Below are positions 37,649 to 42,075 of a DNA stretch of 64,000 nucleotides, piece by piece. The DNA comes from Candidatus Bathyarchaeota archaeon. Lineage in GTDB: Archaea; Thermoproteota; Bathyarchaeia; Bathyarchaeales; DTEX01. Location of the stretch: the NCBI GenBank assembly GCA_025059045.1, contig JANXEA010000002.1, forward strand, positions 10,798 through 74,797, read 5' to 3'. The notes beneath the pieces were generated by a model that was given only the letters and a program-made list of their open reading frames with translations, made no database searches and was not told the DNA's origin. Position 1 is the stretch's first letter, and every line of letters starts with the position of its first letter. The translations under genes were made by a program, and so were the position numbers.

Positions 37649-38530
37649 TTAGATCAAACCTCTCTCTGCGAGGAGTTTGAACTCTTCGAAGGATATCTTT
37701 TCCCCCCGCTTCAGCTTCTCCAATGCCTCCTGCTCAACTTTACTCCGCATCTCCATCTCCTTTCTAGCCCTCTCTGCCTCCTCACTCTCATGGATCCTCA
37801 TTTTGAGGGCTTTGATCTTTCCCTGAATCTCCCTGAATCTCTCTTCAATGAGCTGGGCTTCTTTCTTCACCTCTAGGTACCTTCTATGCATCTCATCAGC
37901 CTTACTTCGGTTCTCGTTGAGCAGTGAGGTTTTCTCCGCCAGTTCCCTCAAAATTTTTTTGCTACTCTCAAGAATCCGGGAAATACTGTCATTATAAGTG
38001 GCTATCTCATCCTTGAGCATGTCAGCCTCTTTTTGGAGGGAGGCAATCTTTTCCTTTATGCCATCTATCCTCCTATAAGATTCTATCTGCTTCTCCAGAT
38101 CTTTAACCTTCTCAATCAGCTTCCTTTCCTCATCAATTGCGTGCGGAACTGTTTGGATCCTCCATTCTATCTCTTCTATCTCTTTCCGCAAAGAATCTCT
38201 GCTTCGGGTAGGTCTGGCAGCAAGCTCCATTCTCAGTTTTTGTCTCAATGTTTTAAGATCGTCTATGATCTTCGCACGTCTATTTTTCGCCTCATCTCTG
38301 AGTGACCTCAGCTTTTGGATCTCCCCCCTCGCCTCGCCTATTCTGACCCTCAAGGCTCTGACCTCATCCCGAAGTCTCCGCGTTTCTGCGTTGAGTTCAT
38401 CGCGGATTTTGGCTATCCTCTTCAGCTCTTCTCTACGCATATCCCTGTCTGCCCTAATGGTGTTAAGTTCCCGAGCAAGATTATTTTCGAGGGAGAGGAG
38501 ATCTTCTTGAGGCATTCCAGCTTCTTCCAT
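37649..38530 (-). CDS. Archaeal coiled-coil protein (COG1340-like); start moved to the internal ATG
   Basis: Highly charged heptad-rich sequence throughout. The track start at 38629 lies inside tRNA-Tyr intron 4 and codons 3-8 overlap exon 5. The first downstream ATG (Met34, 38530-38528; TTG at 38533) gives ~293 aa. Confidence 0.65.
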   Translation of the reverse strand: MEEAGMPQEDLLSLENNLARELNTIRADRDMRREELKRIAKIRDELNAETRRLRDEVRALRVRIGEARGEIQKLRSLRDEAKNRRAKIIDDLKTLRQKLRMELAARPTRSRDSLRKEIEEIEWRIQTVPHAIDEERKLIEKVKDLEKQIESYRRIDGIKEKIASLQKEADMLKDEIATYNDSISRILESSKKILRELAEKTSLLNENRSKADEMHRRYLEVKKEAQLIEERFREIQGKIKALKMRIHESEEAERARKEMEMRSKVEQEALEKLKRGEKISFEEFKLLAERGLI

Positions 38531-38605
38531 CAACTCTCTCAGGCGGACAGATAGATTGGTAGAGGGGATTTTTAATTTTTCCTCCTCAATGTGCTTGAAG
38601 AAGAT

Positions 38606-38822
38606 TGGTCGGGCGGGCAGGATTCTCATAGGAGGCCGTTGACAGCCATCCTACTTTGAATTCGCCGAACCGCAGATCATCTGCGGCTCTCCTGCGACAA
38701 TCCGGTTTCTGTACGCTTGGCAGGCTGAGATCGCCTACCACGCTGGTAGACGACTACAGCATCTCCGCCAGCCCGCATAAAAGGGCTAGCTCGGAAGCTC
38801 TGCCAAGCTGAGCTACCGCCCG
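38606..38822 (-). tRNA. tRNA-Tyr(GUA) with four introns; encoded CCA
   Basis: Exons 38822-38792, 38760-38754, 38706-38691, 38660-38655 and 38622-38609, plus CCA at 38608-38606. They splice to CGGGCGGTAGCTCAGCTTGGCAGAGCTTCCGGCTGTAGACCGGATTGTCGCAGGTTCAAATCCTGCCCGCCCGA.
- Acceptor: 7 bp, CGGGCGG/CCGCCCG.
- D arm: GCTC/GAGC.
- Anticodon arm: TCCGG-CTGTAGA-CCGGA.
- T arm: GCAGG-TTCAAAT-CCTGC.
- C1-G72 and A73 match archaeal Tyr identity.
Each of the four junction pairs sits in 3-nt bulges 4 bp apart. Confidence 0.85.
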
Positions 38823-38849
38823 ACAATCATTCACAAAAGAAAATAGGAC

Positions 38850-38861
38850 ATATATCCTTTT
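38850..38861 (-). promoter_or_regulatory. BRE/TATA promoter of tRNA-Tyr
   Basis: The minus strand reads AAAAGG-ATATAT at -39 to -28 relative to the mature 5' end. tRNA-Arg has the same geometry. Confidence 0.55.
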
Positions 38862-39068
38862 CGTCTATCAATCCCGCTCATAAGATCTTGTCGGGAAACC
38901 TTAATTATATTCTTGTTAAAAATTCGTAAGCTGCTACATTCCACAAGAGGTAAGGAACCATATGTGAAGAGTACTATACGTAAAACGCGAAACGCTATAA
39001 GCAAAATTTCAATAACGCGGAAAACATTAATTTAAGATCTAAATGAAGACAAGCTAAAAATAGTGAAT

Positions 39069-39143
39069 GGGCCGGTAGTTCAGTCTGGTATGAATGCCGC
39101 CCTCGCACGGCGGAGGCCGCGGGTTCGAATCCCGCCCGGTCCA
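39069..39143 (+). tRNA. tRNA-Ala(CGC)
   Basis: GGGCCGG-TA-GTTC...GAAT-G-CCGCC-CTCGCAC-GGCGG-AGGCC-GCGGG-TTCGAAT-CCCGC-CCGGTCC-A. It has the G3-U70 Ala identity pair, no intron and no encoded CCA. Confidence 0.95.
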
Positions 39144-39595
39144 CTCTTTATATACTCTTGGATGAACCAGGAACACATAATTTTCTCTTCCTAAAGAACT
39201 TAAGCCCATCTTGCTCATAGATATATTCGAAGCCGCTTTCGATCAGCTGTTCTATCCACTCACGTTTTTTTCTTATTGACCCATTAATGGTTGAAGGTGA
39301 TGATCAGCATGCTAGTTAATTTAGGCACACCGCTAGAAATAATTCGGCATCCTCTATTTGAGGCGAGAATCTCCAACAGTTGCTTGCGAACCCTCAAGTT
39401 AACAAAGAGGTTATTTCGGATCTGAGCGATCTTTAAGCGGCCAATATGAAAGGATTAGTGAAAGGCTAACTTTATAATATGGGCCAATTCCTAAACACAT
39501 TGTAATTTACGGCATTTTGGGCTCACTTAATAGTCGGTTCTAATTGTTGTATTTGGGTAAAACTATATATACTTGGATGGATTATCCATCCAAGT

Positions 39596-41203: not shown

Positions 41204-42075
41204 ATGTTGAGTGATGATGTTAAGAGAATGCTGATAGCCGCCCAAAGAAATGAGATCACAGAGCATCTCGTTTACGATAGGCTTTCCCAACTTATAAAGG
41301 ATCCTATAATAAAGAGACTTTGAAACGCATTTCATATGATGAATGGAAACATTACGGGTTTTGGAGGGAATATGCTGGCAAAGATGTGCAGCCAGACAGG
41401 CTTAAGGTATGGATTTTTCTCATGATTTCAAGAATTTTTGGAGTAACATTTGGCATAAAGCTGATGGAGAGCGGTGAGGAGGCTGCACAAGTCACCTACG
41501 AAAAAATATCGGCGTGTATCCCTCTCGCCAGAAGCATTATAGAAGATGAAGATAAGCGTGAGAAATAGCTGCTAGAGCTGATCGACGAAGAGAGGTTGAA
41601 ATATGTGGGCTCAATGGTTCTTGGCCTGAATGATGCGCTTGTAGAATTGACCGGGGCTCTTGTAGGGTTTACATTCGCTCTTCAAGACACACTTCTAGTT
41701 GCGATGGCTGGTTTGATTACTGGGGTTGCCGCGTCCCTATCTATGGCCACTTCAGAGTACCTTTCAACAAAGTCTGAGGGGAGTGGAAAGGTCCCAATTA
41801 AAGCAGCAGGGTATACAGGCGTGGCTTATATTCTGACGGTTCTGGTCCTTATATTTCCATATCTAATCCTTCCAGACTTGTACATGTGTCTGGTGCTCAC
41901 GATGATTGATGCGATAATCATCATCTTCGTCTTCACCTTCTATGTCTCTGTTGCGAAGAGTCTTCCATTCAAAAAGAGGTTTCTCGAGATGGTTTTTATA
42001 AGTCTCGGAATAGCATCACTAACATTTGCTTTAAGCTTCTTGATAAGAGCGTTCATGGGAGTCGAGATAGACTAA
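41204..42075 (+). pseudogene. VIT1/CCC1-family iron/manganese transporter with N-terminal ferritin-like domain, disrupted by a frameshift and an in-frame TAG
   Basis: Three collinear pieces.
- 41204-41323: MLSDDVKRMLIAAQRNEITEHLVYDRLSQLIKDP...
- 41320-41568 in another frame: ...NKETLKRISYDEWKHYGFW...
- After TAG at 41566-41568, the same frame continues LLELIDEERLKYVGSMVLGLNDALVELTGALVGF..., the VIT1 TM domain. Confidence 0.7.

Follow-up and report, generated by a model that had tools for sequence, protein, structure and literature searches.

Reviews credit an archaeal transfer RNA (tRNA) gene with two or three introns, and a 2021 paper gives the figure as "up to three". Higher counts are entered for Asgard archaea in the table of Valentin-Alvarado et al. 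2024 (PMC11291895), which provides columns for a fourth intron and where the Freyarchaeia Ile2(CAT) and Arg(TCT) genes are listed with 4/4 introns, and where four introns were recognized by R2DT in the Freyarchaeia Leu(GAG) and Atabeyarchaeia(-2) Trp(CCA) genes. Among the sites at which archaeal tRNA introns are found, 37/38 is canonical while 30/31, 53/54 and 59/60 are listed as non-canonical (PMC4090602). No description of tRNA introns in Bathyarchaeia was found in the searchable literature. Here we analyze a tRNA-Tyr(GUA) gene, located on the minus strand (38822-38606) of a 64,000-nucleotide (nt) stretch of contig JANXEA010000002.1 of a Bathyarchaeia metagenome-assembled genome (MAG), hereafter the window. 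The comparisons presented below argue strongly that it is a functional gene, very probably interrupted by four bulge-helix-bulge (BHB) introns at 30/31, 37/38, 53/54 and 59/60. A first-pass annotation of the sequence had set the gene against Thermoproteales and placed its intron number at or beyond the described maximum. Neither point can be kept as it stood: the organism belongs to Bathyarchaeia rather than Thermoproteales, since the genes flanking the tRNA are syntenic with Bathyarchaeia loci, and four introns equal the recorded maximum without exceeding it, as four-intron Asgard tRNAs are already tabulated (PMC11291895 Supplementary Data 4). No tRNA gene was found on record with more introns than the Bathyarchaeia gene, which is present unremarked in at least 15 public assemblies.

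Gene structure and splice-site geometry

Joined in silico, the five exons (31, 7, 16, 6 and 14 nt) form a 74-nt cloverleaf in which every stem is paired, and the spliced sequence is called tRNA-Tyr(gta) by ARAGORN. The product has the anticodon loop CUGUAGA, the T-loop UUCAAAU, a C1-G72 pair and A73, and is followed by a CCA end encoded in the genome. The introns, numbered 1 to 4 from the 5′ end of the gene, are 31, 47, 30 and 32 nt long and lie at junctions 30/31, 37/38, 53/54 and 59/60, respectively (Table 1). The first-pass annotation had proposed these five exons and the intron coordinates, which were reproduced to the base on the minus strand, and a perfect 74-nt cloverleaf with Tyr identity features, with which the ARAGORN call, C1-G72, A73 and CCA agree. 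It had also described a BHB layout at all four junctions, and a recount helix by helix gave the same result.

To score the BHB motifs, each pair of splice sites was set in two 3-nt bulges, directly behind the second base of each, and the helices were counted. Introns 1 and 4 form full BHB motifs, the latter only once intron 3 has been removed, as its outer helix is the 5-bp T stem, which is continuous only with intron 3 gone. Introns 2 and 3 form the relaxed motifs hBH and HBh′, respectively. The outer helix of the intron 2 motif is the 5-bp anticodon stem, continuous only with intron 1 gone. Some of these features weigh against a functional four-intron gene. The intron 2 BHB has no inner helix in strict register, while that of intron 3 has an A.G mismatch in the central helix and lacks an outer helix. 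With two relaxed motifs, cleavage would depend on a tolerant enzyme.

BHB-like motifs are also common by chance. On both strands of the window 7641 candidates were counted with a comparable filter (128 kb x 78 lengths), such that approximately 7.7e-4 of the (start, length) combinations pass, and three of the four introns pass this filter, intron 3 being the one that would fail because of its A.G mismatch. It could be argued from this abundance that tRNA-like fragments have come together by chance. We give this explanation practically no credence, because the motifs stand at precisely the four places required to rebuild a tRNA, their removal yields a perfect cloverleaf, and the same layout recurs, with covariation, in at least 14 other, independent assemblies; the comparative data refute it.

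Table 1. Coordinates of the exons, introns and associated elements of the tRNA-Tyr(GUA) gene in the window. A1 is the alignment of four-intron genes.
Feature	Position	Strand	Description
Putative archaeal promoter, B recognition element (BRE) + TATA box, ACGAAAAGGATATATG	38849..38864	-	TATA end 28 nt upstream of tRNA position 1
Exon 1, CGGGCGGTAGCTCAGCTTGGCAGAGCTTCCG (31 nt)	38792..38822	-	Positions 1-30: acceptor 5′ strand, D arm, anticodon stem 27-30; invariant or nearly so in A1
Intron 1 (31 nt), 30/31	38761..38791	-	Central helix CUUC/GGAG, 4 bp (one G.U); inner helix 8 bp; outer helix 2 bp
Exon 2, micro-exon GCTGTAG (7 nt)	38754..38760	-	Positions 31-37, including anticodon GUA; invariant in A1
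Intron 2 (47 nt), canonical 37/38	38707..38753	-	Central helix CUGU/ACAG, 4 bp, all Watson-Crick; 5′ hairpin, linker, conserved 3′ module
Intron 2 module	38710..38727	-	CAGC 38727-38724, CUGCCAAGC 38723-38715, 2-nt spacer, ACA 38712-38710
Exon 3, ACCGGATTGTCGCAGG (16 nt)	38691..38706	-	Positions 38-53: anticodon stem 3′ strand, variable loop, T stem 5′ strand
Intron 3 (30 nt), 53/54	38661..38690	-	Relaxed BHB; central helix CGCA/GGCG, 3 bp + A.G mismatch; inner helix 10 bp
Exon 4, micro-exon TTCAAA (6 nt)	38655..38660	-	T-loop positions 54-59; invariant in A1
Intron 4 (32 nt), 59/60	38623..38654	-	Central helix UUCA/UGAG, 4 bp (one G.U); inner helix 5 bp
Exon 5, TCCTGCCCGCCCGA (14 nt)	38609..38622	-	Positions 60-73: T stem 3′ strand, acceptor 3′ strand, discriminator A73
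Encoded CCA end	38606..38608	-	Read in genome; also encoded by most Bathyarchaeia orthologs

Distribution of the introns in related tRNA-Tyr genes

Related genes were sought by a 5′-exon pattern scan of species-representative genomes, which yielded at least 120 loci; those listed are mostly from Bathyarchaeia and Nitrososphaeria, with some from Caldarchaeum and Brockarchaeota, and the counts of intron states are those of a sample. The mature tRNA was aligned to each locus by a splice-aware dynamic program, after which boundaries were refined by BHB score. Three loci with a second TTCAAA in their intron loops (L025, L099 and L106) were parsed via exon anchors, while 16 unparsed loci represent acceptor-stem G.U pairs, locus-end truncations or bacterial look-alikes.

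The four-intron layout is found at the same positions in at least 14 other species-representative genomes (L002, L003, L014, L023, L025, L027, L048, L053, L059, L068, L099, L106, L109 and L118), and all 14 genes splice to a product that ARAGORN calls tRNA-Tyr(gta). Other relatives carry subsets of the four introns in essentially the same mature tRNA-Tyr sequence. The most frequent states among the loci listed are 37/38 only (23 loci) and 30/31+37/38 (22 loci), followed by 30/31+37/38+59/60 (four), 37/38+53/54+59/60 (two), 37/38+59/60 (two) and 30/31+37/38+53/54 (one). The genes flanking the tRNA, coding for a prenyltransferase, PNP_UDP_1 and DUF373 proteins and a protein of 293 amino acids without family, are syntenic with 11 Bathyarchaeia loci at approximately 60-75% amino acid identity (tblastx). 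Six of the syntenic orthologs have all four introns (L059, L027, L003, L014, L053 and L068), two are without intron 1 (L085 and L065), one is without intron 3 (L036) and two have only introns 1 and 2 (L073 and L020). Since orthologs without a given non-canonical intron keep the same tRNA, each of these introns has been precisely deleted in some natural lineage. Relatives with one to four introns in several combinations provide a natural series for the study of tRNA intron gain and loss, in which the four introns would be ancient in the lineage, with different sets of them having since disappeared from related species.

The same loci bear on whether a real gene has been parsed wrongly, with fewer or different introns, such as a single large intron from 53/54 to 59/60, or with shifted boundaries. 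Such errors do occur, as ARAGORN in intron mode returns alternative single-intron parses for two-intron relatives, and our first spliced alignment misplaced the T-loop boundaries in L025, L099 and L106. The alternatives, however, give wrong isotypes, whereas the four-intron parse invariably gives Tyr(gta). Exon 4, UUCAAA, is needed for the T loop and, where a relative is without intron 3 or intron 4, directly adjoins exon 3 or exon 5, respectively. Furthermore, no boundary shift that preserves the product is possible at the junctions in the window, and the BHB register fits only the sites in Table 1. A different parse is thus most improbable.

The Nitrososphaeraceae show a layout of their own. 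Here 33 of the loci listed, including those of Nitrosocosmicus (e.g. L004, L011, L012, L017 and L019), combine the 37/38 intron with a T-loop intron that follows mature nt 59 (Sprinzl 58/59) and thus precedes the 59/60 site of Bathyarchaeia by one position; this intron has its own conserved BHB (inner helix CAA/UUG). Two archaeal-type, intron-containing tRNA-Tyr genes were also observed on contigs with bacterial labels, one Nitrososphaeraceae-like (L024, 'bacterium ES-bin-123') and one Bathyarchaeia-like (L114, 'Candidatus Acidoferrum sp.'), which suggests, from the tRNA sequences, that these are mis-binned archaeal contigs.

Conservation and covariation among four-intron genes

The gene of the window and the 14 others were combined in an alignment of 15 four-intron genes (A1), in which the exons are invariant or nearly so and the introns variable. 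The BHB structure is paired in 95.3% of the cells of A1, as against 35-44% with slid partners, and 19 pairs show changes on both sides; the observed values were reached in none of 500 shuffles. Compensatory double changes are found at all eight pairs of the intron 1 inner helix across the 15 genes, while covariation is seen at 4/6 pairs counted in the inner helix of intron 3 and at 4/5 pairs in that of intron 4. Compensatory changes also preserve the acceptor stem. Upstream of the gene, an ACGAAAA(R)NATA(T/A)AT block occurs at the same distance from tRNA-Tyr in the syntenic and in other Bathyarchaeia loci, and its sequence and position are those expected of a BRE/TATA promoter, as which it presumably functions.

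The relaxed state of two of the BHB motifs would also be compatible with a pseudogene, that is, a decaying or silent copy of tRNA-Tyr in a genome with a conventional working gene elsewhere. A decaying copy is nevertheless difficult to reconcile with exons that are invariant across 15 genomes in which the introns diverge, with compensatory changes that hold both the acceptor stem and the intron helices, or with a conserved promoter. Moreover, no assembly has two hits among the at least 120 loci listed (the window's own contig is not among them), and the canonical intron is present in every one of approximately 100 related tRNA-Tyr genes listed. We therefore consider a pseudogene very unlikely. 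The central proposal of the first-pass annotation, that four BHB introns interrupt a tRNA-Tyr(GUA) gene and leave two micro-exons (7 and 6 nt), is supported by the sequence, by the presence and absence of introns in orthologs and by covariation.

Predicted maturation and order of splicing

The gene would be transcribed from the BRE/TATA promoter approximately 30 nt upstream into a precursor of 214 nt, the ends of which would be trimmed, the splicing endonuclease EndA would cut within the paired 3-nt bulges of each BHB, and an RtcB-type ligase would join the exons. Since introns 2 and 3 are relaxed motifs, EndA would have to be of a broad-specificity type. According to one account, non-canonical introns are cleaved only by EndA of the (alpha-beta)2 and epsilon2 types (PMC5829648); the literature searched yielded nothing useful on which type of EndA occurs in Bathyarchaeota.

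The four motifs are interlocked. The central helix of intron 1 uses nt 25-28, while its outer pairs use C32-U33, which are also needed by the central helix of intron 2, and intron 1 splits the anticodon stem that serves as the outer helix of the intron 2 BHB. Similarly, the central helix of intron 3 uses the 5′ strand of the T stem, and intron 3 separates the T stem from the central helix of the intron 4 BHB. When each BHB was imposed on the full precursor by ensemble folding, the cost was 1.8 kcal/mol for intron 3, 4.0 for intron 4, 4.5 for intron 1 and 12.2 for intron 2, the last falling to approximately 6 kcal/mol after removal of intron 1; these are model values for 37 °C in a probably thermophilic organism, a caveat to be added to those raised by the relaxed motifs. 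Cutting of both neighboring introns ahead of ligation would set the 7- and 6-nt micro-exons free as oligomers. On account of the interlocking motifs, the need to hold the micro-exons and the folding costs, the model points to a likely order in which intron 1 is spliced before intron 2 and intron 3 before intron 4, with intron 2 last. Micro-exons between interlocked BHBs would thus require ordered cycles of cutting and ligation.

A conserved module inside the canonical intron

The 3′ part of intron 2 contains a module that was surveyed in 98 distinct loci from four lineages, namely Bathyarchaeia, Nitrososphaeria, Caldarchaeum/Caldarchaeales and Brockarchaeota (e.g. L002, L004, L007 and L067). 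Throughout these loci the canonical intron follows one plan, consisting of a 5′ hairpin of approximately 9 bp, a linker of 3-9 nt, CAGC, a 9-mer, a spacer, ACA, a further 3-21 nt and the splice site. The spacer measures 2 nt in 82/98 loci and 1 nt in 9/98. The ACA is kept in 97 of the 98 loci, and is retained also in 62 where it no longer forms a BHB strand. The 9-mer is the reverse complement of the D-loop of its own tRNA (gene nt 15-23), with 9/9 pairing in 88/98 loci as compared to 0.7% of shuffled introns, and the two strands covary at position 17 (U-A 30, C-G 67) and position 21 (C-G 10, U-A 72, U-G 11, A-U 5). Because G.U pairs occur in the helix between D-loop and 9-mer, the constraint acts on the sense RNA. 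The CAGC pairs with G31-G34 in 93-95 of the 98 loci, while the bases facing U35 and A36 are non-complementary.

This alternative D-loop/intron structure is paired in 99.1% of the cells of A1 (25-44% with slid partners) and is the RNAalifold consensus. It is also both the minimum free energy structure and the centroid of a precursor containing intron 2 alone (z = -5.8). In the predicted dominant fold, U35-A36 are the only nucleotides of the 5′ strand that stay unpaired, U35 being the first, between a lower helix of approximately 13 bp and the 5′ hairpin of the intron, and the ACA is located approximately 15 nt from the position of U35, separated from it by 13 paired nt (CAGC and the 9-mer) and the spacer. 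The D-loop/intron helix cannot coexist with the intron 2 BHB because the two cross, with a linker of only 2 nt between the intron strands; on this topology argument we judge them to be mutually exclusive conformers, which fits with intron 2 being spliced last.

The geometry recalls that of H/ACA guide RNAs. The archaeal H/ACA ruler is 14-16 nt, and the PUA domain of Cbf5 binds the lower stem and the ACA, or the CCA end of a tRNA (PMC7991803); PUA domain and ruler together bring a target uridine into the active site. In intron 2 the ACA stands within this range of the potential target uridine, beside the lower stem. A two-sided pseudouridylation pocket is not formed, as there is a guide strand on the 3′ side only, the 'substrate' belongs to the chain that also carries the guide strand, and U35-A36-G37 lead directly into the 5′ hairpin. 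No tandem G.A pairs indicative of a kink-turn (K-turn) or kink-loop were seen in the listed intron hairpins, as judged by eye without a formal search, the Bathyarchaeia hairpins being plain Watson-Crick stems with loops of 3-5 nt, and no Rfam H/ACA family matched 38606-38822 at E<=5. Full membership of the H/ACA guide RNAs is ruled out by the lack of a two-sided pocket, K-turn or Rfam hit, and the module is at most an H/ACA-like mimic rather than a member of the family. A C/D-box reading was likewise rejected, no C (RUGAUGA) or D (CUGA) box being visible by eye beside the guide-like segment.

We tentatively propose that intron 2 could act as an H/ACA-like self-guide in cis, recruiting Cbf5(-Nop10-Gar1) for the formation of the conserved pseudouridine-35 of tRNA-Tyr prior to splicing, although we consider this rather doubtful. 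The module might instead serve another intron-dependent modification, or have a role in the folding of the precursor or the ordering of its splicing. If the proposal were true, intron 2 would do in cis what the H/ACA guides of Sulfolobales do in trans, and would provide an archaeal rationale for the persistent retention of the tRNA-Tyr intron.

Detection by standard tools and neighboring features

The unspliced locus gave no ARAGORN hit, in either default or intron mode, and no hit to the Rfam tRNA model at the gathering threshold or at E<=5. Over the whole window, these programs recovered only three intron-free tRNAs, Ala-CGC, Val-CAC and Arg-CCT, and a SPLITS-like scan, in which each BHB-like candidate was removed before ARAGORN was run, found no further hidden tRNA. 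In intron mode, ARAGORN mis-splices the two-intron orthologs by taking intron 1, exon 2 and intron 2 together as one intron, with the result assigned to Phe, Leu, Val, Gly, Asp, Cys, Ile or Trp (loci including L010, L020, L031, L043, L057, L070, L073, L077, L078, L098 and L104). The expectation voiced in the first-pass annotation that default finders may miss or mis-splice the gene has therefore come true, ARAGORN and Rfam missing the gene and ARAGORN mis-splicing its two-intron orthologs. Such mis-splicing has probably introduced wrong isotypes into the annotation of MAGs. As the gene is invisible to ARAGORN and Rfam, and its orthologs are mis-called, tRNA-Tyr is probably missing or wrong in many annotations of Bathyarchaeia MAGs, and their tRNA-based quality scores are probably affected likewise. 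Only 36 tRNA genes were reported for a closed Bathy-6 genome (PMC11697101), a number that may reflect undercounting of such genes.

A mechanically predicted open reading frame of 326 amino acids (37649-38629, minus strand) shares 24 nt with the 3′ end of the tRNA gene. In the NCBI record, however, the corresponding gene encodes 293 amino acids and has its start at 38530, leaving 76 nt between the CCA end and this downstream gene, such that there is no real overlap; its product has no Pfam hit on record. The intron-free tRNA-Ala(CGC) gene (39069-39144, plus strand) lies 246 nt from the 5′ end of tRNA-Tyr, the two forming a divergent pair around one intergenic region. A sub-threshold Rfam match to the C/D-box snoRNA family snoTBR7 at 41333-41403 on the plus strand (23.5 bits; E=2.2) is probably due to chance.

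Comparison with known systems

Multi-intron tRNAs of Thermoproteales, such as the tRNA-Pro(UGG) of Pyrobaculum islandicum with introns at 25/26, 37/38 and 56/57 (PMC4090602), likewise have BHB introns at canonical and non-canonical sites, with relaxed hBH and HBh′ motifs among them. Neighboring introns may also be so close in Thermoproteales that one must be removed before the next BHB can form (PMC8450103), as is the case here. The present gene differs in having four introns rather than three, in its occurrence in Bathyarchaeia, in its very short exons of 6 and 7 nt and in a layout that is conserved across many species, with all intermediate states found among the relatives sampled. A splicing order in which the flanking introns precede the canonical one has been shown by reverse transcription PCR for the nuclear tRNA-Ile(UAU) of Cyanidioschyzon merolae, the three BHB introns of which are located at 37/38, within the T arm and within or next to the D arm (PMC3728597). 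This matches the order predicted here, although C. merolae is a eukaryote, its gene has three introns and the Bathyarchaeia order comes from a model only.

The module of intron 2 is most readily compared with the trans H/ACA sRNAs of Sulfolobales and Aeropyrum (Sso1 and sR115), through which U35 of the intron-containing pre-tRNA-Tyr is pseudouridylated in a reaction that requires the intron (PMC2651775, PMC11077068). In Sulfolobales the enzyme is Cbf5, with the trans guide bound across the intron. In those sRNAs too, a guide strand base-pairs on the 5′ side of U35 and the ACA is located approximately 14-16 nt from the target. In Bathyarchaeia, by contrast, the intron itself carries the guide-like strand and the ACA, in cis, the lower stem is formed with the tRNA's own D-loop, and there is no K-turn or two-sided pocket.

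With respect to intron number, the closest parallel is offered by the Asgard tRNAs, which likewise have four introns per gene, some of them recognized only by manual or R2DT inspection beyond tRNAscan-SE (PMC11291895). The phylum and the isotypes are different, Asgard tRNA-Tyr having one to three introns, and the Asgard cases were tabulated only, without analysis of BHB motifs, conservation or splicing order. The tRNA-Tyr(GUA) gene described here extends the four-intron extreme from Asgard archaea to Bathyarchaeia.

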